The translations under genes and the position numbers were made by a program. The notes beneath the pieces were generated by a model. It did no database searches and was not told where the DNA came from. It saw nothing but the letters and a program-made list of their open reading frames with translations. A stretch of DNA of 64,000 nt from assembly GCA_964523545.1 (NCBI GenBank), contig CAZFZM010000007.1, positions 33,777-97,776 of the forward strand, given 5' to 3'. Positions 3,047 to 61,467 of this stretch are shown here, piece by piece; position 1 is the stretch's first letter; the number at the start of each line of letters is the position of its first letter. Source of the stretch: an uncultured Thermotogae bacterium (GTDB lineage: Bacteria > Bipolaricaulota > Bipolaricaulia > UBA7950 > UBA9294).

Positions 3047-3221
3047 TTCCGGAGGCCCAACGGACGAGCGGAGGAGCATCGCTCCCCCGCCCATCGGCAC
3101 CGGGTGGTGCTAGCTGTCTGCTCGATGATGATGCCACATGACCCATATCAAGAGCGGGACATGAGGTCGGCCGAGGAGGGACATCCGACACCGTTGACCC
3201 AGCTCGCCTCGGCCGTCCCGA

Positions 3222-37403: not shown

Positions 37404-37513
37404 AATGCTTTTCCTTGCCGATCCAGTGCCGAGCGGTATCATCGATCGAGAGGCGCACGGTGTTCGTTCGCTGGGCGCTTTTGCTGCTAGGCATACTCGG
37501 TACCGAGGAAGAA

Positions 37514-40423: not shown

Positions 40424-40443
40424 GCCGTTTGAACATCGCCCGT

Positions 40444-40878: not shown

Positions 40879-41013
40879 CACCGTTCGGTCGCCGCAGCCG
40901 AAGGGGACCGCGGTCCCGGTTGCGTTGAGTTCCACCGCCCGATAGGATCTCCACGTAGCAGATCTATCTACATTCAAAGAAAGCTCCATCGAGTGCCGGG
41001 TGGGAGGTCGCGG

Positions 41014-43442: not shown

Positions 43443-43552
43443 GCTGTCGCTGTCCCGCTCCCTTCAGCGGACGATGAGATCCGCGTATCAAGTATATCGG
43501 AATATATGCCGAAACGAATTGCCCGATAAGTGAAGGGCGCGTGGTGCCGCCG

Positions 43553-44500: not shown

Positions 44501-44714
44501 TGCTCGTCACCTTCCTCATCGCGCGCGCTGCGCCCGAACCCGCCTTCCACGCAGACGCCGCCACATCGGGCTCACACCGGAGACGAGTGCGCGGAGGCGA
44601 TTCGCGCGAGTATAATCCTGCACCGCCGGGAAGGCGTCGAGCGAACGCCCCACGTTCGGGGACGGCCAACCACACCGGCTGAAAGGCTCTGCTGCGAATC
44701 GAAGGAGGAGACCC

Positions 44715-45692: not shown

Positions 45693-46319
45693 CTATCCGC
45701 GACCGGGCGGTCGCACCATGAACCAGATCGGCAGGTTTCCGACCGGCTCGCGCTCCTCGAGGACGGTCTCGAAGCCGCGCTTTCGGTAGAACGCAACGTT
45801 CCCCTCGGTCTGGGTCTCAAGGTAGCAGGGGACGCCGTCCGCGTCGGCCCTCGCCAGCACCGGCTCGAGGAGCCGTCCGCCGATCCCCTGTCCCTGCGCC
45901 TCCGGCGCCACCCCGAGGGTCCACAGGTACCAGTGCGGTCCGGTCATCAGCTCCTTGTGGTGGTTGTCGATGAACCGCATCAGCGCGAAGAACCGGTCGC
46001 GGGCGTCCCTCGGCAGCCGCATCATCGACCGAGGCAGCGCCATGCCGGTCCGGAGCATCTTCCACAGCGTTGTTTTCGTGTTCTCCGGCGCGATCCAACA
46101 GGCCGCCCCCTCCCCCTCGGGCGTCGTCAGCGCCTCGCCGTAGACGCGCGCGAAGCCGATCAGCGCGTCCCACATCGGTCGCAGCAGCGTCCCGCGCGCC
46201 TCGCGATCCGGGAGGACGCACGACCACATCGTGTCGTCGAGGAAGGCGCGGGTCAACGAATCGGCCGCTCGCTCACGAATGGAACGCTTGACGGGGACGA
46301 TCTGGACCTCTCCGTTCAA
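45693..46319 (-). CDS. GNAT-family N-acetyltransferase
   Basis: Motif A QGQGIGGRLL. TTG start preceded by GGAGGAGG (7-nt spacer). Confidence 0.7.
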   Translation of the reverse strand: MNGEVQIVPVKRSIRERAADSLTRAFLDDTMWSCVLPDREARGTLLRPMWDALIGFARVYGEALTTPEGEGAACWIAPENTKTTLWKMLRTGMALPRSMMRLPRDARDRFFALMRFIDNHHKELMTGPHWYLWTLGVAPEAQGQGIGGRLLEPVLARADADGVPCYLETQTEGNVAFYRKRGFETVLEEREPVGNLPIWFMVRPPGRG

Positions 46320-46359
46320 GGTCGGTCCTCCTCCTTCGCGATGCGCACCATCGCGCTCC

Positions 46360-47199
46360 TTACCGCTCCGGCAGCGCCCCGTGGGCCTCGCGGACAAGCG
46401 ACAGCACCCGCTCCGGCAGCCCTTCGGCCTGCCCCTGGTGAAGCAGGCAGCGAAGCAGGTTCCGCGCGTTGACGTAGCGGTGATGGACGCCCGGCAGGTC
46501 TCCGTCGTACCGGGCCTCGGGCACGAGCGACGTGAGCCAATCGCGCACGTCGTTTTCTGCCAGGATCTCGCGCTGCAACGCGCGGATCATCGCCGTCGCC
46601 GCCCGGGCGTCCTCCTCGTGGCCCCAGACCGTCCGGTCGGTCACGAGGTTGCGGCCGAGGCAGTCGAGGATCCCCCGAAGCTTTTCGGCCCCGATCTCCT
46701 CGCACTGCGCCAGCTCCCCGAGCGTGTCGGCCGCATGCGCCGTCGCGTGGGCCCAGAACGTCTCCGGGGAGACGAAGCCGCGCAGATCCTGCTCGGCGTC
46801 GAGATACCGGATCACCGTTTCGACGAGCCGATCGAGCTCCTCGGACGAGAGGTACGCCTTCTCCCGGTGGGCCTGGACGAACGGACCAAGCGCGAGAACC
46901 GCGAACGCGCGCATGTACACCGTGTCCGATCCCGTCTCGCCGGTGCCGAGGAAGAGGTGCTCTTCGTCCGCGATCGTCCAGAGGAGCTCGCGAAGCTCCT
47001 CGTCCGGCAGCTCGCGCCGGATCGCCCAGAGATGGAGGATCCCGTAGACCCTCCACTCGCGAAGCTTCCCGTCCGTCGATCCGAGGAGCGGAAGGATTTC
47101 TTTGCAGAACGTGAACGGGTCGAGGCCTTCAGGCACTGCGCCCTTCGCCTCCACGATCTCTCCGATCCGCGCCAACCGTGCGTCGCCTTGTGAAGTCAT
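46360..47199 (-). CDS. Hypothetical alpha-helical protein (possibly DUF2785-like)
   Basis: 280-aa non-repetitive frame. Start assignment weak, with no clear SD sequence. Confidence 0.45.
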   Translation of the reverse strand: MTSQGDARLARIGEIVEAKGAVPEGLDPFTFCKEILPLLGSTDGKLREWRVYGILHLWAIRRELPDEELRELLWTIADEEHLFLGTGETGSDTVYMRAFAVLALGPFVQAHREKAYLSSEELDRLVETVIRYLDAEQDLRGFVSPETFWAHATAHAADTLGELAQCEEIGAEKLRGILDCLGRNLVTDRTVWGHEEDARAATAMIRALQREILAENDVRDWLTSLVPEARYDGDLPGVHHRYVNARNLLRCLLHQGQAEGLPERVLSLVREAHGALPER

Positions 47200-47340
47200 G
47201 CCGGAGAGGGTAGCCGATCCCTCGCGCCCGCCCAACCGGCCGGGATCACCGGGCGTCGGCACGATCCGACACGGTTCCCGACAGTTGGGCCTTCCGTCGT
47301 TTTTCACGGAAACCCTATTCAGAACTTCGCTTCCTGAAGA

Positions 47341-47370
47341 TTGACATCCGCGCGCGGCAAACCATATAAT
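47341..47370 (+). promoter_or_regulatory. Perfect consensus sigma70 promoter TTGACA-N18-TATAAT upstream of the Na/Pi symporter
   Basis: ttgaca (47341-47346), an 18-nt spacer, then tataat (47365-47370), lying 32 nt before ATG 47402. Degenerate TTC/TTG hexamer direct repeats sit immediately upstream at roughly 10-13-bp spacing. Confidence 0.5.
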
Positions 47371-47401
47371 CCCATCCATCTATACACTCCGGGCGGTCGC
47401 T

Positions 47402-49006
47402 ATGGATGCGGTGGGGGTTCTGTTTAGCACGGTCGGCGGGCTCGCCCTCTTCCTGTACGGCCTCCGCGTCCTGAGCGACGCCCTCAAGCGGGCGATCGGC
47501 GATCGGATGCGCTCCCTCCTTGAGCGGCTGACCGGGAAGGCGTATCGCGGTGCGATCGTCGGGGCGCTGACGTGCGGCACCCTGCAATCGAGCAGCATGA
47601 CGATGGTCCTGCTGATCGGCCTGATCAACGCCGGGGCGCTCACCCTGGCCCAGGGGATCGGGGTGATGCTCGGCTCGGAGATCGGCACGACCGTGACCGC
47701 GCAGATCATCGCGTTCAAGATCGGCCACTACTATCTGCCGATCATCGCGTTCGGATTCCTCCTCGCCGAGATCTTCCGCGGCAAGCGGGCCGGCGACGTC
47801 GGGCGGATCGTCCTCGGCTTCGGTCTCCTCTTCCTCGGGATGAGCGTCGTCTCCGGCGGGCTGAAGGGGCTGGCGCAGACCGAGGGCGTGCTTCGGCTGC
47901 TCCAGAGCTGTGCCGATCGTCCACTCCTCGGTGTCCTCGTCGGTGCCGGCGTCACCGCCGTCATCCAGAGTTCGTCGGCGATGACTGCGCTCGTCATCGG
48001 AATGGGGAGCGCCGGACTCCTGTCGCTGCCGGCAGCGATCGCCCTCATCCTCGGCGCGAACATCGGGACGACGATCACCGCGCAGATCGCGTCGATCGGC
48101 TCGTCCCTGTCGTCGCGGCGGCTGGCCGTGGCCCAGCTGTTCGTCAACGTCCTCGGCGTTGCCGCGTTCGTTCCGATCGTCGGTTGGTACGCGGGGCTCG
48201 TCGCGCTGACGTCGTCGTCCCTCACGCGGCAGATCGCCAACGCGCACACCTTCTTCAACGTCCTCGTCACGCTCGCTCTCATTCCCTGCGTCGGCGGATT
48301 GGTCTGGATCGTCACCCGCCTCGTCCCCGGGAAGGAGCGCGGTGAGCCCGTCGAGCCCCAGTATCTGGGCGATCAATTCCTCCGCCTGCCCCAGGTCGCC
48401 CTACAGCAAGCGCGCCGCGAGCTGATGCGGATGGGGAGAATGACCGTCGAGATGCTGTCTGCCTCGCGTGGCGCGCTCTTCGAGCAGGGCGCCCTCGAAG
48501 CGTCCTCCGTGTTCGAGACCGAAGACGCCATCGACACGCTGCAGGACGCCGTCGACGAGTACCTCGATCGCATCGACGGAAGCTCCCTGTCGGTCGAGGA
48601 CGAGCGGCGGCTTCACGTCTTCCGCCACGTCGTCGGCGACATCGAGCGGATCGGCGACCACGCCGTCAACATCGCCCAGCGGGCCGGCCGCGCCCGGCGG
48701 AACGGCCACCCGTTCTCGAAGCTCGCCGTCGACGAGCTGGGGCACATGTTCGATCGAGCGACCGAGCTGTATCGCCTGTCGCTCCGCGCCCTCCAGGGGG
48801 AGGATCAGGATGCCGCTCACCAAGCGCTCGAAGTCGAGAAGGACGTCGATCGGCTCGAGACCCAGTACAAGGCGACCCACGTCCGCCGGCTCGAAGACGG
48901 GACGTGCGACCCCCAAGCCGGGATCCTGTTCGTCGAGATCCTCCACAACCTCGAACGCATCGGCGATCACGCCGTCAACATCGCCGGGGACGTGCTGCTG
49001 ATCTAG
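47402..49006 (+). CDS. Na+/phosphate symporter with C-terminal PhoU-like repeats
   Basis: Duplicated Na/Pi-cotransporter II-related membrane domain (QSSSMT / QSSSAMT) plus two PhoU-like helical repeats. Preceded by a consensus promoter. Confidence 0.85.
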   Translation: MDAVGVLFSTVGGLALFLYGLRVLSDALKRAIGDRMRSLLERLTGKAYRGAIVGALTCGTLQSSSMTMVLLIGLINAGALTLAQGIGVMLGSEIGTTVTAQIIAFKIGHYYLPIIAFGFLLAEIFRGKRAGDVGRIVLGFGLLFLGMSVVSGGLKGLAQTEGVLRLLQSCADRPLLGVLVGAGVTAVIQSSSAMTALVIGMGSAGLLSLPAAIALILGANIGTTITAQIASIGSSLSSRRLAVAQLFVNVLGVAAFVPIVGWYAGLVALTSSSLTRQIANAHTFFNVLVTLALIPCVGGLVWIVTRLVPGKERGEPVEPQYLGDQFLRLPQVALQQARRELMRMGRMTVEMLSASRGALFEQGALEASSVFETEDAIDTLQDAVDEYLDRIDGSSLSVEDERRLHVFRHVVGDIERIGDHAVNIAQRAGRARRNGHPFSKLAVDELGHMFDRATELYRLSLRALQGEDQDAAHQALEVEKDVDRLETQYKATHVRRLEDGTCDPQAGILFVEILHNLERIGDHAVNIAGDVLLI

Positions 49007-49216
49007 GTAGCCCATTGCTAGCAAGTTGCTGTTACAGTCGTAGGCTTCGCGTTAGCCTTGCCGCCATGTCTCCCCGCCAACTCGGCAGACGGCAACCGAA
49101 ACAGCATCGTCCTCAACCGCCCCGGTCTTTCCTTAGTACCGTGAAAGGAACGTGGGTGGACGCTCCCTCTTCTGGGAGACAAGTGCAAGGGTTCACAGAT
49201 CTCCAGCACAACCATC

Positions 49217-49930
49217 TCATAAGCCAAGATAGAGCGCACCAACCTGCGGATCCCGGAGCAAGTCACGTGAGGAACCTTGAAGACAGATTCGGCCGATCTG
49301 GAATACGTAGGTCCGATCCGAGTTCAGCAACGCCATCCGGGCGTTTTGCTCTACAAGGAGGACGCTAGTGCTATCATCTGGAATCGCCGCGATTTTTCCG
49401 AAAACAACCTCTACGTAATTCGGTGACAGAGCGAACGACGGCTCATCAAGCAATAAGAGAACCGGACGGAGCATCAGGGCTCTGCCCATTGAGAGAAGCT
49501 GTTGCTCGCCTCCGCTGAGTGTCGATGCACGTCGATGTTGCAGCCGGCGCAGGAGCGGGAACATGGATAGTACATCCGCAAGCCTTTCGTCAATAAGCCT
49601 TCCCCGCCTCAGGGTGTAGGCCCCGAGCAAGAGGTTCTCAAGCACTGACATGGATCCAAAGACATGCCTCTCCTCAGGCGCAAGAACTAGTCCCTTTCTG
49701 ACCAGTTTGTACGGAGGCAGTCCTGTGATCCTCTCGCCAGAGAGCGTGACTGCTCCCTCATTGCATGATACAAAGCCGCTGATGGCCTTCAATGTAGTGG
49801 ACTTGCCTGCTCCGTTTGGGCCGATCAGACTTACAACCTCACCTGCACCTACAACAAGGTCCAGGTCTTCAATAGCTCGTTCGTCTCCGTATCGGACGGA
49901 TAGCCCCTCTACTTCGAGCAAACTTCCCAT
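49217..49930 (-). CDS. livF: Branched-chain amino acid ABC transporter ATP-binding protein (LivF-type)
   Basis: Walker A GPNGAGKST, LSGGEQQLL, Walker B LLLDEPS. GGAGGGAG RBS. Roughly 53% GC. Confidence 0.85.
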   Translation of the reverse strand: MGSLLEVEGLSVRYGDERAIEDLDLVVGAGEVVSLIGPNGAGKSTTLKAISGFVSCNEGAVTLSGERITGLPPYKLVRKGLVLAPEERHVFGSMSVLENLLLGAYTLRRGRLIDERLADVLSMFPLLRRLQHRRASTLSGGEQQLLSMGRALMLRPVLLLLDEPSFALSPNYVEVVFGKIAAIPDDSTSVLLVEQNARMALLNSDRTYVFQIGRICLQGSSRDLLRDPQVGALYLGL

Positions 49931-50182
49931 GTCACTCCCTCCGAAACACCGACTTCCGGCACACAAGCCAGGGAACCCTTGCGTCATCGAATTCTACGGA
50001 TCCAAGCCGTCCAGTTGAAGCATGAAGCTACAGGACGTGGGGACCATGCCCGCTGTGAGACAGACACAGGGCCTTAGCACAGGTCGCTCTGGTCCTTTGT
50101 AGGCAAGACGGCGATCGACGACAATGGGAGTTGGTATGTGGATGCGTATACGGCCAAACAAGTCGATCGCTGAGGGACGAAC

Positions 50183-50866
50183 ATGAAAGCCAACAGGAAC
50201 GGCCCTTTTGCGCGCTTCTGGACAGAGGATTACTTCACGAAGTGGGCGAATGATCCAGGAGACGATACGATTCAGGAATGGCTGCACGGCGAGGAAAGCC
50301 TACTGGATGTTGAGATCCGCAAGTTGGGTCGGCCAGCCCTCCTAGACATAGGATGCGGTTATGGGCGGCACATCTCTCGGATTCGTCTTCTCTGCAGTTC
50401 GATTGTTGGCATTGACAACAACCGGGCTGTGCTTGACAGAGCCATTGCCACCAAGGAGAAAGATAACTGGGAGAATGTCCAGTTCCTACTCCGGGACGCT
50501 CGAAAAACCAGGCTCTCGGCCGATGAGTTTGACATGACGATATGCATGACGAACACGCTGGGGAACATCCCGAAGCGCAAGGTTGAAGCTCTGAAGGAGA
50601 TGAAGCGGGTCACCCGCCCTGGAGGTGTGATCCTCCTCAGCGTGTACTCTGAGAGAGCGCTTGAAGCGCGTCATGCGTCATATGCGCATGTGAAGCTGCA
50701 CATCAAGAGCGTGACTCACAGTGGTACAATTCTCACAACAGAAGGCCTTAGGTCAGAGCAATTCACTCGAGACCGACTAGCAAGGCTTCTGACAGCCGCA
50801 GAGATAGGTGACGCTGAGATTCGAGTGCTCTCGTCGATCTCCTATGCTGTTGTAGCACGAGTCTAG
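50183..50866 (+). CDS. Class I SAM-dependent methyltransferase
   Basis: Motif I LLDIGCGYGRH, motif post-I VGIDNN, PGG motif III. GAGGGA RBS. Encoded on the strand opposite the surrounding liv genes; its 3' end overlaps the livG 3' end by 4 nt. Confidence 0.75.
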   Translation: MKANRNGPFARFWTEDYFTKWANDPGDDTIQEWLHGEESLLDVEIRKLGRPALLDIGCGYGRHISRIRLLCSSIVGIDNNRAVLDRAIATKEKDNWENVQFLLRDARKTRLSADEFDMTICMTNTLGNIPKRKVEALKEMKRVTRPGGVILLSVYSERALEARHASYAHVKLHIKSVTHSGTILTTEGLRSEQFTRDRLARLLTAAEIGDAEIRVLSSISYAVVARV

Positions 50867-51651
50867 TTGCTTTCGGTGTGTAAAACGGCCCCGCTGGAGA
50901 GTCCAAGGTACGCCTCAACTACGTTTTGCTGCAACATTACTTCATTCGGGCGCCCATCGGCAATCATGCGCCCGTAGTTCAGAACAATCACGCGGTCAGA
51001 GACCTGGTGGATCATCCTCAGATCATGCTCGATGAAGAGGACTGTCTTCCCAGCCTCAGCTAGAGCGCGAACTACCTTGTTGATCTTCTCGCGTGTCTCG
51101 GGAAACACGCCGGCAGCCGGCTCATCAAGCAGCATGAGCGAAGCATCCGAGGAAATCGCTCGGGCTAGTTCTAGGAGCTTCCGCTGTCCATGCGACAATG
51201 TTCCGCCAAGCGCAGTCTGCTTGCCGATGAGACCTACCGTGCGAAGTGACCGAACCGCTTTTTCTTCAGCGTGATCTTCCGCATGTTTCACTCTGCGTCG
51301 GCAGAAGACCGCGGGCAAGATCCCCTCCTCAGCGTGTATGTACTGGTGTGCCAGCATCACGTTTTCTAGCACGCTCATCTCACGCATGATCCGTATCCTC
51401 TGGAACGTCCGCGCTACTCCAAGACGCGCTATGCGGTACGTGGACATCTGGCGCAATGAACAGCCATCGAGAAAGATCTCACCCCCTGACGACGATACTA
51501 CCGAGGTGATGAGATTGAACACGGTTGTCTTCCCCGATCCGTTTGGGCCAACCAGCGCAGTAACAGTTCCCTGCCTGACACAGAATGATAGATCGTCTAC
51601 TGCAACGACACCGTCAAACTCTTTACGAAGAGCCTCTACTCGAAGTATCAC
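50863..51651 (-). CDS. livG: Branched-chain amino acid ABC transporter ATP-binding protein (LivG-type)
   Basis: Walker A GPNGSGKTT, LSHGQRKLLE, Walker B LMLLDEPAAG. GTG start. Confidence 0.85.
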   Translation of the reverse strand: MILRVEALRKEFDGVVAVDDLSFCVRQGTVTALVGPNGSGKTTVFNLITSVVSSSGGEIFLDGCSLRQMSTYRIARLGVARTFQRIRIMREMSVLENVMLAHQYIHAEEGILPAVFCRRRVKHAEDHAEEKAVRSLRTVGLIGKQTALGGTLSHGQRKLLELARAISSDASLMLLDEPAAGVFPETREKINKVVRALAEAGKTVLFIEHDLRMIHQVSDRVIVLNYGRMIADGRPNEVMLQQNVVEAYLGLSSGAVLHTESN

Positions 51652-51660
51652 TGCTCGATC

Positions 51661-52530
51661 CTACCTCAGTTTGTGGGTACCCAGAAGCCCCTGAGGCCTC
51701 CACAGCATCAGAGTAATTAGGATTAGGCCGTATAGAATCTGCCTGGCATAGGGCGCGCTACCTGTAGGCAGTCCTACGAAGCGAAGCAGTTCCGGCACTA
51801 GTGTTAGAAGAAGTGCCCCCACCAGGGGGCCCCAGAAGCTCCCCAATCCGCCGAGTATGACCATGAGGAGAACGAGGATTGTTTCCGTAATCGAAAAGGA
51901 GTCAGGGGAGACAAACCTCACGTAATGAGCATTCAGGCTACCTGCGATGCCTGCGATGCCTGCGCCCACGCCGAATATCTTCACCTTGGCACCATAAGTG
52001 TCCTTGCCACACGTCATTGCCGCCGTCTCATCCTCTCGAATCGCTCGCAACACACGCCCAAGCGGGCTTCGCATGATGCACGCAGTCACAGCCAGAACTG
52101 CTGCCAAACACAGAACTGGGACAGGCAGAAACTCAAGCGGCGAGATCAAGTCGTGATTGGCAACAGACAATGAGGGGATGCCCGGAAGACCCAGCGGGCC
52201 ACGAGTCACTGATACCCAGTTTCGAGCCACGCAAGCTGCCAGGAGACCCAGCGCGAAGGTCGCGAGCGCCAAGTAGTCACCCCGAAGGCGAAGTGCAACT
52301 GCACCAACCAGTATGCCTATACTTCCTGCAATGAGAATGCCAAGTGCAAGACCGAGCCACGGAGACAGTCCTACGTAGTTTGATAGGAGAGCAGTAGTGT
52401 AGGCCGCGACTCCAGCGAAAGCAGCGTGCCCAAAGCTTGCCAGCCCGGTGACTCCGACAACGAGATTGAGGCCTATGGCGACAATCCCATACGTAATGGA
52501 GTTCACAAGAATATGAAGAATGTAGTTCAC
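51661..52530 (-). CDS. livM: Branched-chain amino acid ABC transporter permease (LivM-type)
   Basis: 8-10 TM permease of the LivHM family. GTGA overlap with the livH stop. Confidence 0.8.
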   Translation of the reverse strand: MNYILHILVNSITYGIVAIGLNLVVGVTGLASFGHAAFAGVAAYTTALLSNYVGLSPWLGLALGILIAGSIGILVGAVALRLRGDYLALATFALGLLAACVARNWVSVTRGPLGLPGIPSLSVANHDLISPLEFLPVPVLCLAAVLAVTACIMRSPLGRVLRAIREDETAAMTCGKDTYGAKVKIFGVGAGIAGIAGSLNAHYVRFVSPDSFSITETILVLLMVILGGLGSFWGPLVGALLLTLVPELLRFVGLPTGSAPYARQILYGLILITLMLWRPQGLLGTHKLR

Positions 52531-53405
52531 AACTGCTCCCTGGAAGTACCAAGAATCCCTTGGGGGCGTAAGAGCAGGAACAGAATCAGGATTCCAAATG
52601 CGATGGCATCTTTCCAGCCAGAAGAGATGGATATGACGCCAACGTTCTCGGCAAGTCCAACAAGCAAAGCTCCAAGGATCGCCCCCATTGTGTTCCCCAC
52701 GCCACCAACAACAGATGCAACAATCCCCTTGAGCATTAGCGGCATTCCCATAGTGGGCTCCAGACGTGTCTCAAGAGCAATGAGAGCCCCTCCAATTCCA
52801 GCGAGGAAAGACCCCAAACCAAAGGAGAGTCGGATCATCGCCTCAGGATCTATACCGACAGCCCTGGCGCCTGTTTCATCATCCGAAGCCGCGCGTACTG
52901 CCCATCCAACCCGTGACTTCAACAAGAAGACACGAACAGCCAGCGTGGCCATCACTGCCACGCCGAGTATGGCTAGTTGGCTAATCGTTATCGTGCCGAA
53001 TCCCAGGCTGATACCAGCGGCTGCTGGTTGACTTCTCAACAGCAGAGGGCGACTGCCGAATGCCAACGCAAGGGCATTCTGAAACACAATAAGTGTGCCA
53101 AAGGATGCCAGTAGAAACGCAAGAGGAGGACTCCGCCTGCTCCTCAGTGGGCGGTAGACGACGAAGTCAATGGCAATTCCAACAGCCGATGCTCCCAAGC
53201 CACCCAGCAGCAGAGACGCTGCAAGTCCCCAACCCGCCATGTGCATCGCCGCATAGGCCACATAGGCCCCGCACGCAATTGCTGCCCCATGGGCGAAGTT
53301 GAAGAACTTGACAACCCGATATGTAAGTGAGAATCCAACTGCCACCAAAGCGTAGATCCCCGCAGCTACAAGACCATTGACAACCAGTTGGCCAAGAAGG
53401 CGCAT
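52527..53405 (-). CDS. livH: Branched-chain amino acid ABC transporter permease (LivH-type)
   Basis: MRLLGQLVVNGLVAAGIYALVAVGFSL is a typical LivH N-terminus. The start is about 1 nt uncertain. Overlaps the upstream hypothetical by about 8 nt. Confidence 0.8.
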   Translation of the reverse strand: MRLLGQLVVNGLVAAGIYALVAVGFSLTYRVVKFFNFAHGAAIACGAYVAYAAMHMAGWGLAASLLLGGLGASAVGIAIDFVVYRPLRSRRSPPLAFLLASFGTLIVFQNALALAFGSRPLLLRSQPAAAGISLGFGTITISQLAILGVAVMATLAVRVFLLKSRVGWAVRAASDDETGARAVGIDPEAMIRLSFGLGSFLAGIGGALIALETRLEPTMGMPLMLKGIVASVVGGVGNTMGAILGALLVGLAENVGVISISSGWKDAIAFGILILFLLLRPQGILGTSREQL

Positions 53406-53412
53406 CTTTGGG

Positions 53413-54450
53413 CTAGGTGCGGTGCGCCGCCACACCACCAACCGGTTCGCGAAGCCCAAGAAACTCGGCACCTTGACCCAGAGACGAGTCGTTGGGCCAC
53501 CGGCACTCCCTAGCAGCACGACATAGAAGAGCAAGGGATGCCTTTGATTCATCCCAGATGGTCTCATTGCCAATCCGCGGTCTTGCCTCTATGTCGGTCC
53601 TACCTTCGGAATGAACGTACCACCAGACAGCCCTCTTGTCATGCTCTAACGCCACACCTTCAGTCTCCGCCCCCAAGTCGACCATCAGGAAGTCCGGACA
53701 GGGATTGTCCTCAGCACAACCAGTCCTAATCGCAAAGGTACGGAGCCGGTGGTTCTCCTGATCCGTTGCGTGTCTGTTCATCCACTTCACTAGGTCTTCG
53801 AGCACAAGGGGTATGCAATGAACTCTGAAATACCTGTGTAGCTCGATGAGTTTCTCAAAGAACCTGCCTCGAGCCCTGTACGCAGTAGATGGGTAGACGA
53901 GAATCCGAAGGCTGAAGAACCCTTGAGGTGCGCCCCCCTGCGCCAGTGACTCCAGTAGCGCAGCCTCCTCAGCGCGATACTCAGCTCCGTTCTGGTTTCC
54001 TATGCTCATTCCATGTCCTGCTTCGATTCCGGAGCAGCTTCTCCGACAGAATTCAACTACTGTCTTGACTCCTTGTACCATGAGGTAGTAGGTAAACGTC
54101 GGACTCTCCCAGAGTGCGAGCGGCTTGCTTGAGACGGCGCATAGACTGCGCCTGGCAGCCTTCATAGCATCGGTGAGGCCCTTTGCCTCGTTGAGGTCTG
54201 GAACTGGGGTTTCTCCAACGGGTCTCGAGAAGAGCACACGGATGAGCAGCTGCAGGATCGCAACCAAGAACAGAATCAGAATGTTGGCCAAGTAGTAAAA
54301 CCCGCTCGATACAAGAGTGCGGTCGTAGATGTACAACAACACAGCTGCCGCAAAAGCTGCGAACAGGCCAAGAGCCAGACTGCCAAGAATCTGTCGTACG
54401 CCGAGCAGTACTACGACGTCATCACGCATTCGCGGTCGAAGGAACCGCAT
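53413..54450 (-). CDS. Hypothetical membrane-anchored protein inserted within the liv operon
   Basis: AAGGAGG RBS 5 nt before the ATG. Two N-terminal TM helices followed by a soluble domain of about 250 aa, Cys-rich and matching no known family. Lies between the SBP and livH genes. Confidence 0.5.
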   Translation of the reverse strand: MRFLRPRMRDDVVVLLGVRQILGSLALGLFAAFAAAVLLYIYDRTLVSSGFYYLANILILFLVAILQLLIRVLFSRPVGETPVPDLNEAKGLTDAMKAARRSLCAVSSKPLALWESPTFTYYLMVQGVKTVVEFCRRSCSGIEAGHGMSIGNQNGAEYRAEEAALLESLAQGGAPQGFFSLRILVYPSTAYRARGRFFEKLIELHRYFRVHCIPLVLEDLVKWMNRHATDQENHRLRTFAIRTGCAEDNPCPDFLMVDLGAETEGVALEHDKRAVWWYVHSEGRTDIEARPRIGNETIWDESKASLALLCRAARECRWPNDSSLGQGAEFLGLREPVGGVAAHRT

Positions 54451-54477
54451 GGAGACCTCCTTGCTTCCACATGTCAC

Positions 54478-55614
54478 CTACTCGTACAAGAACTCAAACC
54501 TGCCGTTTCTGACTGTCTTGAGCATTAGAGGTTTGACGGTATCGCCGTTCTCGTCGATCGTGATCACACCCGATGCACCTTCGAACCCGACAACAGAATA
54601 GAGTGCATCCCGGAACTCGTCCGCTGTGCTGGCGCCGTCACAGATAGCCTGACCAACTAGCATCATTGCATCATAGGCTTCAGCACAGAAGAGACCAGGT
54701 TCCGCACCAAACCTCTCGCGAAATGCATCCAGAAACTCATCACGCGGTGCATATCCTCCTGCCGGTTCGTAGTCCCACGTAGTGAATATAACCCCCTCCG
54801 CAGCCTCGCCAGCCTGTTGGAGGATCTCCTGGTCATCGAACATCACCGTGCTAAGGAACTGAGTATGCATTCCTAACTCAACAGCCTGTATCAGTATAGG
54901 AATCATCTCCTTGTATCCGACGAGGAAGACGGCGTCCGGCGCCGCGGCTTTGATCTTGGTCAGCTGTGTCCGGAAATCCGTCGCGTCTTGATCAAACGCT
55001 TCGGCAAGTAAGATTGTCCCTCCAAGAGCACTGAATTCCCTTTCGAATACCTCTCTCAAGCCGACACCGTAGTCATTCACGATGTACAGGATGGCAACAG
55101 TCCGCAGGTTCAGAGCCTCGTATGCCTTCGATGCCATCACAGCACCCTCGTAAACGTCAGAGAGGCAAACCCTGAATATGTAGTCACCAGCATTCGTTAT
55201 CTCTGGTGCAGACGATACTGGTGAAAGGAGTACAACCTGGGAGTCCTCGCACACAGGCGCAACCGCCTGTGTTACGGAGCTACCCATCGCTCCTATGATC
55301 ACTGAAACGCCATTAACGTCGATGAGTTTCCGTGCACCGCTCAGGCCTACCTGAGGTGTCAGCTGAGTGTCTTCGTACACTACGTGAATTCGTGTTCGGC
55401 AGAACCCAGCAGTCTTGTCAAGTGCGAGCTCAATCCCCTGCTGTGCATTCTGCCCGTACATCGCACCGGATCCAGTAAGTGGCAGAAGAGCCCCAATCGT
55501 AAACTCATCACTCATGGACTCTCCGCCCCATGGCGGAAAGAGCCCCAGCCAAATAGCGATCCCAGCAGCGATTGCCACCGTCACGCCGATGCAGACACCG
55601 CGCTTGCTTTTCAC
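54478..55614 (-). CDS. Branched-chain amino acid ABC transporter substrate-binding protein (LivK/Peripla_BP_6-like)
   Basis: N-terminal signal/anchor followed by TIGALLPLTGSGAMYGQNAQQGIELA, typical of LivK/LivJ. GTG start preceded by GGAGGGAGGTG. Confidence 0.8.
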   Translation of the reverse strand: MKSKRGVCIGVTVAIAAGIAIWLGLFPPWGGESMSDEFTIGALLPLTGSGAMYGQNAQQGIELALDKTAGFCRTRIHVVYEDTQLTPQVGLSGARKLIDVNGVSVIIGAMGSSVTQAVAPVCEDSQVVLLSPVSSAPEITNAGDYIFRVCLSDVYEGAVMASKAYEALNLRTVAILYIVNDYGVGLREVFEREFSALGGTILLAEAFDQDATDFRTQLTKIKAAAPDAVFLVGYKEMIPILIQAVELGMHTQFLSTVMFDDQEILQQAGEAAEGVIFTTWDYEPAGGYAPRDEFLDAFRERFGAEPGLFCAEAYDAMMLVGQAICDGASTADEFRDALYSVVGFEGASGVITIDENGDTVKPLMLKTVRNGRFEFLYE

Positions 55615-55646
55615 CTCGCACCTCCCTCCAACCCATGACCTCCCCT

Positions 55647-55707
55647 TCTACGCTAGCAGGTCATGAGAAATAATCTCTCTGCTGTAGCTACCCGAAGCTA
55701 GCGTAGA
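55647..55707. promoter_or_regulatory. 11-bp perfect inverted repeat TCTACGCTAGC...GCTAGCGTAGA (39-nt spacer) between the IclR gene and the liv-type operon
   Basis: Arms at 55647-55657 and 55697-55707, about 35-90 nt upstream of the SBP start codon (55614) on the minus strand. The inner loop contains a GTAGCTAC palindrome. Confidence 0.4.
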
Positions 55708-56095
55708 CCCTTTTCGCGCCCCTGCTTCATGATGGTTTCTTGTGACATCCACTGTACTTCCATGACGAAGAAAGGTCAACACCTGAGATACTCAGTTGAA
55801 AGCGGACTCGATAAGGAAGGGGCAGAGATCACCGGAGACTCGGTCCCTTCGGTGCGTGAACGCCGGGGCAGCTTCAAGAAGGCGACTAAACCGATCTAGC
55901 GCTCTCGCTCGGATGGACTCTCCTGCATAGCTTCACCACTCAACTCCCACTGTGCAGCCAAGGAGCCAGTCGTTCGAAGGGACGAGGGACAGGATCAGTA
56001 TTCGTCCTTCAGGCCTGCGATTGGCGGCAATTCGAGCATTGCATGAGCGCCGTGAACTGGCCCCCGAACTGGAAGCCGTGAGCTGTCTCGGCTTC

Positions 56096-56881
56096 CTACC
56101 CCCGTCGCGTCTCCTGCGCGGTGATCTCGCGGGTGATGCGGCGGGCGGCGTCGGTGAGCAGGCCGATCAGTTGCTGTCGGGGGGAGCCCTCTCCTCGGTG
56201 GCGAGGCACGGAGGCACCGAGCGAGGCGACGATCCTCCCGGAGAAGGAGAAGATCGGCGCGGCGATCCCGCGCGTTCCTTCAATCGCCTCGCCGTCGCTC
56301 TCGGAGTAGCCGTTCTTCCGGATCTTCTCCGATTCCTGAAGAAGGATCGCCGGATCGGTGATCGTCGTGTCGGTGAACCGCTCGAGCCCGACGTCCTCGA
56401 TGATCATCTCCTGCTCCGTCGGCTCGAGGTGGGCGAAGATCGCCTTCCCGGTGGCGCTGGCGTGCAGGGGATAGGTGTCGCCGAGGTCGTAGGACACGCG
56501 GAGGGTGTGGTGCCCCTCGACGATCTCCATGCAGATCCCGACGTGCTCGTGCAGTCCGCAGAGGATGATCGTCTCCCCGGTCTCGCGGGCGATCCGCTCC
56601 ATGTACGGGAGCGCCACGTCGCGGAGCGGCCTGTGCGTCATCGTCGCGGCGAGCTCGAGGATCTTCGCCCCCAAGCGATAGCCGGGACGCTCGGACGCCT
56701 CCTCGACGAGCAGGTGCGCCCTCAACGCGGCGACGTAGCGATACGCGGTGCTCCGCGGAAGGCCGAGATCCTCGGCGATCTCGGAGACCTGAAGAACCGG
56801 ACGTTCGACGAACAGGGTCAGGATCTTGACGCACTTCTCGAGCGTGCCCAGCGGGCCGTCGTGCTCCCTCGGTCCCATCAT
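56096..56881 (-). CDS. IclR-family transcriptional regulator
   Basis: N-terminal wHTH (LGLPRSTAYRYVAALR) and C-terminal IclR effector domain. ATG-ATG start preceded by ACGGAGA. Native high GC. Confidence 0.85.
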   Translation of the reverse strand: MMGPREHDGPLGTLEKCVKILTLFVERPVLQVSEIAEDLGLPRSTAYRYVAALRAHLLVEEASERPGYRLGAKILELAATMTHRPLRDVALPYMERIARETGETIILCGLHEHVGICMEIVEGHHTLRVSYDLGDTYPLHASATGKAIFAHLEPTEQEMIIEDVGLERFTDTTITDPAILLQESEKIRKNGYSESDGEAIEGTRGIAAPIFSFSGRIVASLGASVPRHRGEGSPRQQLIGLLTDAARRITREITAQETRRG

Positions 56882-56982
56882 TCGAGATCTCCGTTCGTGG
56901 AATGCGCCGATCGTAGTCCGCTCAGGCGCACCCAGCAACCCATCTCCGGCCGCTTCGCGGCTCCGATCCGACGGACCGATCG

Positions 56983-58830
56983 TCAACCGACGACGTCCGG
57001 CCGATCCGGCACGTCGTAAAGGATGTCATCCAGGGGATGCCGATACAGCCCCTGCTCCAAGCGGTTCTGGTCGAAGTAGTGGCCCATGAGGCCGATCGAG
57101 CGGCCGAGGACGAACAGGGCGTTGAACGTGCCCATCGCGATCATCCGGTCGATCTCCTCGTCGGTGAATTCGAGCTCCTTGAGCAGATCGACCAGCAGCA
57201 CGCCGATGCACCCGTCGACGTTCAGGATCAGGTTGTTCTTCTTCTGCGTCGTAACGGCCTCGACGGACAACGCGTAGTCGAGCAGCGGCGTCGCGCGGAA
57301 GTGCGTCCGCGCGTAGGTCTTCATCAGCTCGACCCGCTTGTCCGGATGCTCGATCGTGTGCAGCCGGTGGCCGATCCCCTGGATGTTGACGCTCTTCGAC
57401 TTCATGTGGTCGACGAAGTCGCGCGGCGCCATCCGGTTCCTCAGGCCGAAGAGGAAGTGCTCGGCTGCGCCGTTGACCGCCCCGCCGAACCGGGGGCCGA
57501 TCGTTACGATCCCGCTGACGAGCGACGAGATGAGGTCCTTCCCCGCCCGGGCGGTGACGATCGCGTTGTGCGCGCCGGAGACGGCGGCACCGTGGTCGGC
57601 GATGATCTGGACGACCATCTCGAGGAACTCGCGCGCGTAGGCGGGGATCTCCTTCTTGAACCAGAGGAGGCCGATCACGCCGCCGATCCCGAGCTTCCGC
57701 TCGATCACCTCGTCGATCGGCACGCCGCAGTAGTTGTGCACGTCGCCGGACTCGTCGCAGATGGTGGAGACGAAGCTCGTCGGCTTGCGCACGAGCCCCT
57801 CGGCCACCGCTTGGGCGTAGTCCATCGGGATCGCCGGAGACTCGAACTCCTCGGCCGGGACGATCGTCCCGTCGGCGACGAGCTTCTCGTACGTCTCCCG
57901 GATCTTCTCGCCGTAGTCGTCGAACGAGTCAGGAACGATGACGCCGGCGTCGCGCAACGCTTGGTTCTTCGCGTCGGCGGTCTCGTTCTCCGTGCCGGCC
58001 TTCGCCCCGGCGTGGCCGAACTGAACCTGGCCGGGGAGCACCTTGGCGCACGTCCCGGTCGCCCACATGACGAGCGGCTTCGTGATTCGCCCGCCCTTCA
58101 CGGCGGCCGCGATCTCGTGCTCGGCCGTGCCACCGACCTCCCCGAGGCAGACGAGCAGCTTGATCTTGGGGTTCTCCTCGTAGCGAAGCAGGTGATCGAG
58201 GAGGGTCGAGCCGGGGAAGGCGTCGCCGCCGATCGCGATCCCCTCGTACAGCCCGTCGGTCGCGCGGGCGATGATGTTGTACGCCTCGTTCGACATCCCG
58301 CCGGAGACGGAGACGAACCCGACCGACCCGGGCCGGTACAGCTTCGCCTCCTTGATGTTGTCCATCGTGCCGGCGGTGTTGCCGATCTTGAACGAGCCGG
58401 CCTGGATCCCGCCAACGGTCGCCGGGCCGATGATCCACTTGCCCCGCTCCTTCGCGGTCGCGGCGAGGATCCGCGCGTGCCGCTCGGGGACGCCCTCGGC
58501 GATGACGGCGATCGTGCGGATCGTCTCCGTGCCGAGTGCCTCCATCGTCGAGTCGAACGCCGAACGCTGCGAGGCGAAGTTGATCATCACGTCGGCGTCC
58601 GGCCAGCGCTCCGTCGCCTGCGCGATCGTCTGGACCTTGGGGATCGTGATCTCCCGCGTCCCCCAGAAGAACTTCTCGAAGCCGCGGCGCTCGGGGGTGA
58701 TCATCGCGACGACGGACGGGGCGTCCTTGCGGCAGAGATAATCGAAGTCGAGCATCCGCTGCACGGCGCGCGTCTGGTTGCCGTACACGAACGCCTTCGT
58801 GTCGCGCGAGAACAGCTCGTACCGTTCCAT
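56983..58830 (-). CDS. aclA: ATP-citrate lyase alpha subunit (CoA-binding/phospho-His domain + citrate-synthase-like domain)
   Basis: Catalytic His context QFGHAGA, succinyl-CoA-synthetase-alpha-like N-terminal half, and citryl-CoA-lyase-like C-terminal half (GIGHRLHTIEHPDKRV). 615 aa. The aclB stop lies 2 nt upstream. Confidence 0.85.
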   Translation of the reverse strand: MERYELFSRDTKAFVYGNQTRAVQRMLDFDYLCRKDAPSVVAMITPERRGFEKFFWGTREITIPKVQTIAQATERWPDADVMINFASQRSAFDSTMEALGTETIRTIAVIAEGVPERHARILAATAKERGKWIIGPATVGGIQAGSFKIGNTAGTMDNIKEAKLYRPGSVGFVSVSGGMSNEAYNIIARATDGLYEGIAIGGDAFPGSTLLDHLLRYEENPKIKLLVCLGEVGGTAEHEIAAAVKGGRITKPLVMWATGTCAKVLPGQVQFGHAGAKAGTENETADAKNQALRDAGVIVPDSFDDYGEKIRETYEKLVADGTIVPAEEFESPAIPMDYAQAVAEGLVRKPTSFVSTICDESGDVHNYCGVPIDEVIERKLGIGGVIGLLWFKKEIPAYAREFLEMVVQIIADHGAAVSGAHNAIVTARAGKDLISSLVSGIVTIGPRFGGAVNGAAEHFLFGLRNRMAPRDFVDHMKSKSVNIQGIGHRLHTIEHPDKRVELMKTYARTHFRATPLLDYALSVEAVTTQKKNNLILNVDGCIGVLLVDLLKELEFTDEEIDRMIAMGTFNALFVLGRSIGLMGHYFDQNRLEQGLYRHPLDDILYDVPDRPDVVG

Positions 58831-58831
58831 C

Positions 58832-60100
58832 CTACTTCCCCCCTTCGAGCGCCATCGGGACGACGGCCGTCATGTGCGTCTCCGGGCCGTACACCTCGAT
58901 CGGCACGCCGATCCGCTCGCCCGCTCGCCGCATCTTCTCCAGCCCTTCCACGTAATTCGGACCGCCGCGGCGGACGAAGATCCTCACGTTGTTCTGCTGC
59001 AGTCGCTCCTTGTACGCCTCGAGCGCCTGGATGATCCCGGTGAACGTCTTCGCCACGTCGGTGAAGTTGGCGATCCCGCCGCCGATGACGAGGAACTTCG
59101 CCCGCCCCTTCGGATCGGGCGTCCGCGTCATCAGATCGAGCACCGTCTTTGTGTACTCGTATGTCATCTCGGTCGACGGGTTGCCCGAGTACTCGCCGTA
59201 GTTGGCGAGCTCGTCGGCGAAGCCGAGGTCGACGACGGTGTCGGCGTAGATGACGGACGCCCCGCCGCCAGCGACGAGGAGCCACACCCGACCGTCCGGA
59301 TTGAGGACGGTCAGCTTGAGCGACGCGCCCGTCTTCTCGTCGAGCGACTTCACGTACGCCTCTTCCTCCGTCGTCGTCGTCCCGAACGGCTTCGGGAACT
59401 CGATCGTCCCCCACCGCTCGGCGCACTGGTACGCCGCGGTGTCGTCGAGCTTGGCCACCGCGTCCAGAGCGACGATCGTTCCGTCGGCCAGGGTGAACGG
59501 GTTGAGCTCGAGGTAGGCGAAGTGGTCGTCGACGTAGATCCGGTACAGCGCCTCGATGAAGGAAACGACCTCCTCCTGCTCAGGAAACTCCGGGAGCCGT
59601 TCCTCGAGGGTGGCCCGGTCGAGCGTCCCGAGAATAGGCACCTCGATCTCGATCACCGTCTCCCAGACCGATTCGATGTCGACGCCTCCCTCAGTCGAGA
59701 AGTGAATGACGTCCGCGTCGCGTCTCGACGTGAACGCCACGTAGTACTCGACGTCGTGCGGGACGAACGGCTCGATCAAGAAGTGGGTCAGGACACCGGT
59801 CGTCTTCCCGCCGGCCCCCTCGATCGTGACCTGCTTGTTCCTCCGCTCGCCGATCCACGTCTTGACCTCGTCGAAGCTTTTGTCGACGAAGAGCAAGTCA
59901 TTCACCCCGCGCTTGCCGAACAGCTGGTCGGGCTTGGCCACGAGCTTCGTCGTCTCGAGCCACGGCCGCTGCGCGGGCAGGCCGTCGAGGTCGGTGTCCG
60001 GACCGACGAGAACGAGCCGCTCGTCGGCCGTCGACGCGGCGCCGAGGGCCCTCGCCAGCATCCGCTTCGCGTCGTATTCGCGTATCCCTCGTTGTGCCAT
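58832..60100 (-). CDS. aclB: ATP-citrate lyase beta subunit (ATP-grasp, SucC-like)
   Basis: ATP-grasp succinyl-CoA-synthetase-beta-like fold. The 422-aa length and order aclB-aclA match ACL operons. AAGGAAGG RBS. Confidence 0.85.
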   Translation of the reverse strand: MAQRGIREYDAKRMLARALGAASTADERLVLVGPDTDLDGLPAQRPWLETTKLVAKPDQLFGKRGVNDLLFVDKSFDEVKTWIGERRNKQVTIEGAGGKTTGVLTHFLIEPFVPHDVEYYVAFTSRRDADVIHFSTEGGVDIESVWETVIEIEVPILGTLDRATLEERLPEFPEQEEVVSFIEALYRIYVDDHFAYLELNPFTLADGTIVALDAVAKLDDTAAYQCAERWGTIEFPKPFGTTTTEEEAYVKSLDEKTGASLKLTVLNPDGRVWLLVAGGGASVIYADTVVDLGFADELANYGEYSGNPSTEMTYEYTKTVLDLMTRTPDPKGRAKFLVIGGGIANFTDVAKTFTGIIQALEAYKERLQQNNVRIFVRRGGPNYVEGLEKMRRAGERIGVPIEVYGPETHMTAVVPMALEGGK

Positions 60101-60116
60101 GTCTCTCGAACCTTCC

Positions 60117-61421: not shown

Positions 61422-61467
61422 GGTGTTGCCCTCCTTCGGAGGTCGATTCCGCCCTCTCGCTCGCCCC

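Follow-up and report, generated by a model that had tools for sequence, protein, structure and literature searches.

A seven-gene block in a Candidatus Bipolaricaulota genome is a horizontally acquired cassette that encodes a member of a distinct clade of HAAT-family (liv-type) ABC importers, together with a membrane protein of an undescribed family, here called protein X, and a class I SAM-dependent enzyme. The cassette, of ~7.1 kb, lies within a 64-kb stretch of DNA (the window, analysed here in full) and sits between the stop codons of two convergent native genes encoding a Na/Pi-PhoU symporter and an IclR regulator. To our knowledge, Bipolaricaulota is a candidate phylum without cultured representatives. 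The textbook ABC importer consists of a binding protein, two permease domains, and two ATPases.

The GC content of the block is 0.549, from 49007 to 55950 or to ~56095, versus 0.665 for the rest of the 64-kb window, where all other 1-kb bins have a GC content of at least 0.61. GC3 is 0.54-0.60 in the seven island genes versus 0.87-0.95 in the flanking Na/Pi, IclR, and Acl genes, and the GC-normalised tetranucleotide profile of the island correlates with the remainder of the window at r=0.47, versus 0.965-0.985 for every other 7-kb segment. An earlier note on this DNA had described a low-GC compositional island, and the deviation of all three measures confirms it. The note had placed the left edge at the 3' end of the Na/Pi gene, where GC indeed falls directly after the stop (49006), and the recovery at 55950, which was too early; the true right edge is ~145 bp further, GC returning at ~56040-56095, at the IclR stop (56096). 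The left junction (49007..49216) consists of 210 bp of low-GC spacer, running from the Na/Pi-PhoU stop codon (49004-49006) to the stop of the livF-like gene. The right junction (55615..56095) is a 480-bp low-GC region upstream of the operon that reaches the IclR stop codon, has a GC content of 0.48-0.60 as far as ~56040, and matched no Rfam family.

Horizontal acquisition, which the earlier note had also proposed, is borne out by this foreign composition, by the absence of the cassette from 15/15 related Bipolaricaulota genomes fetched, and by a synteny break exactly at both flanking stop codons. Homology to relatives L008-L011 stops at window positions 49004-49006 (the Na/Pi stop codon) and restarts at 56095-56112 (the IclR stop codon), and in relatives this slot is filled differently, by an EamA gene plus one resembling a kinase in L009 and by a HicB-like gene in L008. 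The note had named as contrary evidence the same gene order, vertically inherited and of the same composition, in close relatives; the search for it was negative, and the only lineage that keeps the order is an unrelated one. The block thus combines deviant composition with absence from close relatives, as a genomic island does. Of the mobility hallmarks of such islands, no integrase or transposase was found in the island, where all seven ORFs are cargo, no tRNA was found in the 64 kb, and no direct repeats were found flanking the island. The closest known cassette is 42-65% identical, and the donor lineage is unsampled.

An assembly or binning artefact, in which 7 kb from a different organism became joined into a Bipolaricaulota contig, is highly improbable. 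The window does derive from a metagenome-assembled genome, its composition jumps abruptly, and the sole other record of the exact sequence is a Logan contig whose ends lie 70 bp and ~60 bp inside the host genes and which has little other sequence. That contig, however, was independently assembled with a different assembler and crosses both junctions at 100% identity, and host sequence on both sides means that two chimeric joins would be needed, both hitting intact stop codons exactly and truncating no gene. Additionally, an analogous cassette at L001, a locus assembled from six different samples, is likewise island-like, with flanks of higher GC3. A native operon, inherited vertically and owing its unusual composition to expression level or amino-acid content, would fit the seven of seven intact ORFs with good ribosome-binding sites, but it is effectively refuted by its absence from all 15 relatives, by a GC3 that is independent of amino-acid content and ~0.3 below that of flanking genes, and by the foreign tetranucleotide signature.

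The transporter genes are all on the minus strand, and their domain matches support the LivK-like SBP and the LivH, LivM, LivG, and LivF types assigned in the earlier note. The substrate-binding protein (SBP; 378 aa, 54478..55614) has a GTG start, a GGAGGGAGG ribosome-binding site, and an N-terminal hydrophobic anchor or signal; it matches Peripla_BP_6 at E 3e-56 (PF13458, E 2.9e-56, 192 bits versus a cut-off of 31.7), and its best solved relative is a T. maritima amino-acid SBP (3td9, E 4e-54). Two permeases match BPD_transp_2 (PF02653, 168 and 135 bits): a LivM-like protein of 289 aa (51661..52530, E 3e-49) that is 49-57% identical to permeases of the other four X-containing operons described below, and a LivH-like protein of 292 aa from ATG 53405 (52527..53405, E 4e-39), in which the profile begins at residue 64 of the long ORF. 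Two ATPases match PF00005 at ~100 bits each: a LivG-like protein of 262 aa (50863..51651, E 1.8e-28), whose BCA_ABC_TP_C tail scores 19.6 bits, under that profile's cut-off, and a LivF-like protein of 237 aa (49217..49930, E 1.7e-28), which starts at ATG 49930 with a GGAGGG ribosome-binding site, has a GC3 of 0.56, and is 65% identical to its L001 orthologue. This parts list, a Peripla_BP_6 SBP with two BPD_transp_2 permeases and two ATPases in one operon, is that of E. coli LivJ/K-LivHMGF and UrtABCDE (HAAT, TC 3.A.1.4). As the note had suggested, this is not a housekeeping liv operon, since every transporter protein scores below the NCBIfam equivalog cut-off for its E. coli LivFGHMK counterpart (LivF 181/441, LivG 222/362, LivM 179/366, LivH 140/379, and SBP 114/477 bits). 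Compared with these known systems, the island cassette carries a SAM enzyme and adds a sixth, membrane-anchored component, X, between the SBP and permease genes. We know of no described HAAT system with an accessory protein like X, and a literature search for such an importer found none.

The ligand-contact residues of LivJ, which we take to be Y18, S79, A100, T102, Y150, Y202, and E226, presumably include in E226 the Glu that holds the alpha-ammonium group of the ligand. Compared with the LivJ reference sequence, verified against PDB 1z15, the window SBP keeps Y18, S79, D121, Y150, and Y202, and has Ser in place of T102 and Val in place of E226. The E226 position is V, T, or P in all five X-linked SBPs.

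Protein X (345 aa, 53413..54450, minus strand) has no known family and consists of a membrane hairpin and a cytoplasmic domain with a PLD-superfamily fold. The earlier note had described a two-TM protein of this length without a recognisable family, preceded by an AAGGAGG ribosome-binding site, and an opposite-strand class I SAM methyltransferase with a 4-nt overlap with the 3' end of livG (convergent, 50863-50866). All of this was confirmed; the AAGGAGG lies 7 nt upstream of ATG 54450, and the two transmembrane helices are N-terminal. The 8-nt overlap that it reported between X and livH, in contrast, is a 7-nt gap when read from the sequence (X stop TAG 53413-53415, livH ATG 53405), and the two genes would overlap only if livH started at the alternative GTG codons 53435 or 53438. 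The hairpin is present in most family members, and both of its termini are placed inside because fusion to a SAM enzyme, described below, requires it. The cytoplasmic domain has the PLD/Nuc core fold, though Foldseek E-values exceed 0.1 and identity is 5-13%, and the X family profile detected no sequence-level relationship to PDB entries. The HxK(x)4D (HKD) motif is absent from the window X, and in 48 aligned family members it is matched only once, by a non-conserved string in the variable linker of P0007; the place of the missing motif was judged by motif spacing and not by superposition. The conserved polar residues S107, S108, R182, H205, C212, E218, and D253, of which R182 is strictly conserved, suggest a binding or active site.

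Compared with the PLD superfamily, represented by the Nuc endonuclease (1bys), Zucchini/MitoPLD (4ggj, 4h4a), NucT (6ehi), and the cardiolipin and phosphatidylserine synthases, in which two HKD halves come together through duplication or dimerisation, X has one PLD-like domain, to which helices are added, and its conserved residues differ (W114, R182, H205, C212, D253). The HKD-less PLD-like domains of TrmB/TrmBL2 (sugar-binding domain) and FAM83 (DUF1669) have no detectable sequence similarity to X and, unlike X, belong to soluble regulators or scaffolds that are neither membrane-tethered nor linked to ABC permeases or methyltransferases. X matched none of the PADLOC anti-phage defence models. 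The X family comprises 54 clusters among 1.84 billion representative proteins, is currently unannotated, and is an undescribed protein family.

The methyltransferase (MT; 227 aa, 50183..50866, plus strand) has a Rossmann-type SAM-binding core with GxGxG. Among the PADLOC defence models it gave only a partial match, of this core to mad2 (109/492 profile positions). The azetidine-2-carboxylate (AZE) synthases AzeJ/VioH have a class I MT fold and a published signature of FY, PFNxxGN, RxxYYxxC, and GxxxG (PMC11794875), and the island enzyme is an AzeJ-like MT. It is probably not an AZE synthase, since the signature is lacking: PFNxxGN and RxxYYxxC each occur in 0/42 of the sequences compared and the canonical GxGxG in 42/42, and the equivalents of the catalytic F134 and Y175 of AzeJ, assigned by motif spacing and not by superposition, are Thr and Ser. 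The MT and livF-like genes diverge from an intergenic region (49931..50182) presumed to hold promoters for both. In L001 these genes likewise diverge, from a spacer of 210 bp; no sequence conservation was found, and a promoter scan was at chance level.

The MT is orthologous to the C-terminal domain of fused X-MT proteins. Among the longer X homologues recovered by profile search, a C-terminal class I MT domain is present in seven of the ten scanned with Pfam, and in 31 the C-terminal half can be aligned with the entire window MT. In ~30 other clusters X is fused to an MT domain orthologous to that of the island, and the model of a fused homologue from Bipolaricaulota reaches pLDDT 90 and pTM 0.75. 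These alignments indicate that a protein made elsewhere as one chain (hairpin, X, and MT in that order) is split in the island into X and MT and, because the two are so fused, that MT is a dedicated partner of X.

Identical order and strands of all seven genes, the opposite-strand MT included, are found in L001-L006, one locus of an unrelated metagenomic lineage seen in six samples, whose seven proteins are all 42-65% identical to those of the window. Related cassettes adjoin an integrase (L036) or a DNA methylase and HNH pair (L001). Unfused X is encoded between the SBP gene and that of the first permease, tightly spaced within the operon, in 5/5 independent lineages (the window, L001, L036, L039/40, and L041/42) that span GC 35-66%. 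The transporter proteins of these five operons are 42-84% identical to one another and form one orthologous clade; X itself is only 22-42% identical. A SAM enzyme is present in four of the five operons, in differing forms and positions: an AzeJ-like MT in the window and L001, another class I MT in L039, and a B12-binding radical SAM enzyme between X and livH in L041. No SAM enzyme was found near the L036 operon. The earlier note regarded the operon as interrupted by two non-transporter genes. That description does not hold, given the constant position of X, the fusions to MT, and a mixed-strand layout kept in the distant L001; as judged from gene order and fusion, X and MT are conserved partners of the transporter rather than interruptions.

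The best explanation, which we hold with moderate confidence, is that of an acquired HAAT cassette with X and a partner SAM enzyme, in which the imported substrate is modified with SAM on entry. The SBP would capture an amino-acid-like carboxylate, with most LivJ ligand contacts kept and the alpha-ammonium Glu lost, for import via the LivH/M-like permeases and LivG/F-like ATPases. X would stand next to the permease at the cytoplasmic face, where it may bind substrate and/or recruit the SAM enzyme, and the imported molecule would be methylated or otherwise SAM-modified while entering the cell, a modification that would trap, detoxify, or convert it. We infer that the job of the cassette is to modify, at the membrane, a substrate resembling an amino acid, and the coupling of X to the permease and MT follows from operon position and fusion, that is, from guilt by association. 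A more specific proposal, which we offer tentatively, is that X represents a new class of accessory subunit for ABC importers. Tethered in the membrane and built on a PLD fold without HKD, it would act as an adaptor, docking a SAM enzyme at the HAAT cytoplasmic exit so that substrate is modified on entry, and would be reused in other bacteria as a fused, free-standing membrane methyltransferase.

Alternatively, the transporter could be an ordinary branched-chain/aromatic amino-acid importer, with X and MT an independent membrane-bound methyltransferase, acting for example on a lipid head group or in stress or defence, that merely shares the mobile cassette. Fused X-MT genes adjoin HAAT genes in 0/7 distinct contexts seen, so X-MT can work without this transporter, and several of them lie among integrases, transposases, SAD_SRA-HNH, reverse transcriptase, or Macro-domain genes. 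We nevertheless consider this reading rather unlikely: X occupies exactly the same intra-operon place in every lineage, beside transporters of one orthologous clade, and the PLD catalytic motif for lipid head-group chemistry is absent. Moreover, the L036 operon has X without any MT, and X is therefore tied to the transporter and not only to MT. It is more doubtful still that X is a regulatory subunit (gating or trans-inhibition) that turns the importer on or off when its HKD-less PLD-fold domain senses a metabolite in the cytoplasm, with the SAM enzymes acting downstream in metabolism and physically uncoupled. The recurrent X-MT fusion points instead to an X coupled directly, both physically and functionally, to the enzyme, and the strictly conserved R182 and conserved C212, H205, and D253 fit catalysis as well as sensing.

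The cassette provides a clean case of recent gene gain in Bipolaricaulota, and demonstrates that an operon of mixed strands that looks "interrupted" can move and be conserved as one unit. If X and MT merely hitch-hike, the block would be an ordinary accessory transporter island carrying a new membrane methyltransferase family. If modification on entry is correct, it would amount to a group-translocation-like, import-coupled tailoring for an ABC importer; a conserved sixth component, tied to the permease genes and by fusion to a SAM enzyme, would represent a new coupling of uptake and chemistry, and would give a first functional handle on the rare, unannotated X family.

Seven genes occupy the low-GC island of the window, and the gene assignments made for them in the earlier note were all correct. 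The importer genes lie on the reverse strand and comprise a Peripla_BP_6 substrate-binding protein (SBP, 54478-55614), two BPD_transp_2 permeases (LivH-like, 52527-53405; LivM-like, 51661-52530) and two ATPases (LivG-like, 50863-51651; LivF-like, 49217-49930). Also on this strand is X (53413-54450; 345 aa), which has no significant match to any family; the class I SAM methyltransferase MT (50183-50866) is encoded on the opposite strand. The AAGGAGG site ahead of the X start codon (ATG 54450) and the convergent 4-nt overlap of MT and livG are present as described; the reported 8-nt overlap of X and livH is absent, the livH ATG at 53405 lying 7 nt past the X stop codon. Rfam detected no riboswitch or other RNA family in the island or ahead of the operon, and a promoter and terminator scan gave a chance-level result.

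The importer had been regarded as interrupted by X and MT. A word-indexed search of 5.8 billion proteins returned a single other cluster for X, P0002, at 42% identity. The six contigs bearing it, L001-L006, were rejected as independent contexts, as all are one locus recovered from six samples. This locus keeps the order and strands of the window, MT and X included: SBP, X, two permeases, the LivG-like ATPase, MT (opposite strand, convergent with livG) and the LivF-like ATPase. All seven proteins are orthologous between the window and L001, at 42-65% identity, and the seven genes form a conserved module. The L001 cassette has a GC3 of 0.68-0.74, below the 0.82-0.92 of its flanks, and adjoins a DNA methylase and HNH pair. 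Alignment of the non-coding DNA of the window and L001 revealed no conservation except for one 28-nt stretch upstream of the SBP gene (window 55816-55843, L001 6828-6855; 22/28 identical; coding strand CGAGyyTCCsGTGATCTyTGCCyCkTCC), which could be an operator or could reflect chance.

X is a recurrent in-operon partner of one clade of the liv-type (HAAT) ABC importers. In every context that could be read, unfused X is part of a liv-type operon, flanked by the SBP gene on one side and the gene of the first permease on the other, and this holds in five independent lineages spanning 35-66% GC: the window, L001, L036, L039/L040 and L041/L042. The L036 operon has no SAM enzyme, a frameshifted livF and an integrase nearby; that of L039/L040 has a different class I methyltransferase, upstream and on the same strand; and in that of L041/L042 X is separated from the first permease by a B12-binding radical SAM enzyme. 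Between the five operons the transporter proteins share 42-84% identity (SBPs 47-65%) and X just 22-42%. By these comparisons, the X-linked importers are one orthologous transporter clade with a fast-evolving extra component. The idea that X and MT are unrelated insertions is not supported: X occurs in the same slot in five lineages, and fused X-MT proteins occur elsewhere.

Two of these operons have further features. An apparent frameshift splits the LivF-like gene of L036 (11579-12303) into ORFs of 155 aa and 85 aa; as the contig name suggests a long-read assembly, the cause may be a sequencing error rather than loss of the gene's function. The L041 radical SAM enzyme (2685-4421, 578 aa), which stands in the stead of the class I methyltransferase, is a generic class B protein whose best matches, BchE, HpnR and PhpK, are all sub-threshold.

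The X family is small. A profile search of 1.84 billion representative proteins yielded only 54 clusters, 44 of them at E <1e-10, and a metagenome scan with an eight-sequence alignment found seven loci; a scan of genome contigs with a two-sequence alignment, whose search patterns were too narrow, found no relatives. X had been described as having no recognisable family, and indeed no library searched gave a match above its cut-off: NCBIfam, PADLOC and PHROGs gave none at all, and Pfam gave only ABC_export at 15 bits, far under the 29.7-bit threshold. The plasmid and phage collections contained no X homologue, and the X profile had no match among PDB sequences. A confident AlphaFold2 model built from a 48-sequence alignment (pLDDT 84, pTM 0.76) begins at the N-terminus with two long helices (residues 12-42 and 49-74), after which comes an alpha/beta domain (86-316). 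By simple hydropathy analysis of the 48 aligned members, 33 have two hydrophobic segments and 11 others have one. When the model was compared with the PDB by Foldseek, families of the PLD superfamily were top-ranked, but all at E >0.1. The model thus predicts a PLD-like fold for X without the HxKxxxxD (HKD) motif that defines the superfamily, so that X is set apart from its members by the catalytic motif. This motif is absent from the window X and is not conserved across the 48 members, the sole match being a string in a variable linker of protein P0007. The residues that are conserved are W114 and R182 (100%), C212 (94%), D253 (92%) and H205 (90%), as well as S107, S108, Y186 and E218.

The majority of X homologues are 520-600 aa long, and seven of ten long homologues scanned with Pfam carry a C-terminal Methyltransf_25/11 domain. 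The island MT (227 aa) aligns over its full length (residues ~10-226) to the C-terminal halves of 31 long homologues, at 30-41% identity and E down to 3e-39, and shares with them the family-specific motifs F-W/F...W (at the N-terminus), GCGxGRH, CMTNTxGN, SVY, RxxSYxxV and EGLxSEQF. One fused protein, P0019, comes from a Bipolaricaulota assembly (GCA_028277345.1; model pLDDT 90, pTM 0.75). As MT is orthologous to the fused C-terminal domain, the window and L001 carry a split version of the fused protein. Split and fused forms make a classic Rosetta-stone link, and on this sequence relationship X and MT probably constitute one functional unit. The fusion of X homologues to a SAM enzyme requires that the soluble domain of X face the cytoplasm.

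The main alternative to a role for X in the importer sees X-MT as an autonomous membrane methyltransferase, such as a lipid-directed one, hitch-hiking in the cassette. This fits the free-standing fused X-MT forms, none of which lay beside HAAT genes in the seven distinct contexts read; several of these contained integrases, transposases, a SAD_SRA-HNH gene, a reverse transcriptase together with genes for RNase T and UvrD, or a Macro-domain gene following X-MT. It is at odds, however, with the invariant in-operon position of X and with the one operon that has X but no MT. It is also possible that X is purely regulatory.

Individual fused loci have varied surroundings. In L029 (9860-12081), a Macro-domain gene comes directly after a 577-aa X-MT, its start overlapping the X-MT stop; the X-MT gene is divergent from two SBP_bac_1 binding-protein genes, and GC dips to 0.57 across the X part from ~0.65 around it. 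The neighbourhoods in L043 (1-15692; PDDEXK, DprA/SLOG-like, a 1019-aa reverse transcriptase with RNase T, and a UvrD helicase) and L038 (1-13879; SAD_SRA-HNH, a Ser/Thr kinase and three integrase/transposase genes) look like defence or mobile islands.

Restriction-modification, with X as a PLD nuclease and MT as its methyltransferase, was rejected, since X has no HKD motif and MT is of the small-molecule type; MT had no significant match to the DNA-methylase families of Pfam. MT was likewise rejected as an AZE synthase, the published signature of which (FY, PFNxxGN, RxxYYxxC, GxxxG; PMC11794875) it does not carry, and is therefore treated as a SAM-dependent transferase. The MT family has NxxGN, RxxxY and a canonical GxGxG, and, by motif spacing, Thr and Ser where AzeJ has its catalytic Phe134 and Tyr175. 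The retained Asn, Tyr and Arg, placed by the same motif spacing, could bind an amino-acid carboxylate.

Closest to the SBP are an amino-acid binding protein of Thermotoga maritima (3td9, E 4e-54) and other proteins of the Leu/Ile/Val type. We aligned the five X-linked SBPs to E. coli LivJ, the sequence of which was verified against 1z15. LivJ residues Y18, S79, D121, Y150 and Y202 are kept in all five, and T102 is replaced by Ser. In all five, V, T or P takes the place of LivJ E226, which holds the alpha-ammonium group of the ligand, and a conserved F-D/E-D comes next. This pattern suggests that the ligand may be an amino-acid-like carboxylate other than canonical Leu/Ile/Val.

The island itself is sharp and genuine, as had been proposed. 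GC is 54.9% in 49007-55950 and 66.5% in the remaining 57 kb, where no 1-kb bin falls below 61%; all seven island genes have a GC3 of 0.54-0.60, and the Na/Pi-PhoU, IclR and citrate-lyase-like genes that flank them have 0.87-0.95. With base composition normalised, the tetranucleotide correlation between 49001-56000 and the rest of the window is only r=0.47, compared with 0.965-0.985 for every other 7-kb segment. Of the limits first assigned, 49007-55950, the left one stands, as GC falls directly past the Na/Pi stop codon (49004-49006); GC rises again only at ~56040-56095, at the IclR stop (56096), and the right edge therefore lies ~145 bp further out. A search of GTDB species representatives with the Na/Pi protein found 15 loci (identity up to 87%), all from Candidatus Bipolaricaulota (also labelled Acetothermia, "Thermotogae" or "Atribacteria"). 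None of the 15 relatives encodes the cassette, their livF and livG matches being unrelated ABC ATPases at 24-31% identity, and nucleotide homology to the three closest stops at 49004-49006 and resumes at 56095-56112. The horizontal acquisition put forward earlier is thus borne out: the composition is foreign, the cassette is absent from the relatives, and synteny breaks at both flanking stop codons. Vertical inheritance is essentially excluded. So is an assembly chimera, since two separate joins would both have had to fall precisely on intact stop codons; moreover, a 7220-bp Logan contig from run SRR14802572 (L007) is identical to 48937-56156, across both ends, and both junctions are therefore reproduced by a second assembler.

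The slot downstream of Na/Pi is a variable region among relatives: in L009 it is occupied by an EamA transporter and a large HATPase protein, in L008 by a HicB-like gene. The window contains no tRNA genes, and the island has no integrase and no convincing flanking direct or inverted repeats. A 47-nt direct repeat within the Na/Pi gene (48630-48676 and 48939-48985, 83% identical) matches the protein's two PhoU domains, an ordinary internal duplication and not a boundary repeat. The Logan contig covers no more than 70 bp of the Na/Pi gene and ~60 bp of the IclR gene; one possible reading is that co-existing strains vary in their host flanks, or that coverage varies there, around a uniform island, which would fit recent gain in one strain.

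The surrounding region is a mosaic also outside the island. Segments 37375-40999, 43507-44686 and 46271-47364 have host-like GC and no counterpart in L008, the closest relative; one of the genes there encodes a DUF2785 protein (46360-47379) and has a GNAT acetyltransferase as its neighbour. The IclR gene (window 56096-56986, L008 17887-18675) precedes the citrate-lyase block in the window and in L008 follows the equivalent of 57005-61440, on the opposite side of that block, so that a local rearrangement coincides with the right junction of the island. The block includes a 615-aa protein (56983-58830, reverse strand) with CoA_binding, Ligase_CoA and Citrate_synt domains, arranged as in an ATP-citrate-lyase alpha subunit or citryl-CoA enzyme; its composition is host-like (GC3 0.95), it is 85% identical in L008, and it is possibly a reverse-TCA or citrate-cleavage gene. 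The phylum of the host is usually described as Wood-Ljungdahl acetogens.

In itself, the island is an ordinary case of an accessory transporter gained horizontally. Its unusual side is the sixth component, with a PLD fold, and the way this is fused to a SAM enzyme in some cases and split from it in others; no description of such an importer component or of this link was found in the family libraries and literature searched. We propose that X would dock at the importer and bind the incoming substrate, recruit the SAM enzyme, or both, and that uptake would thereby be coupled to SAM-dependent modification of the substrate.
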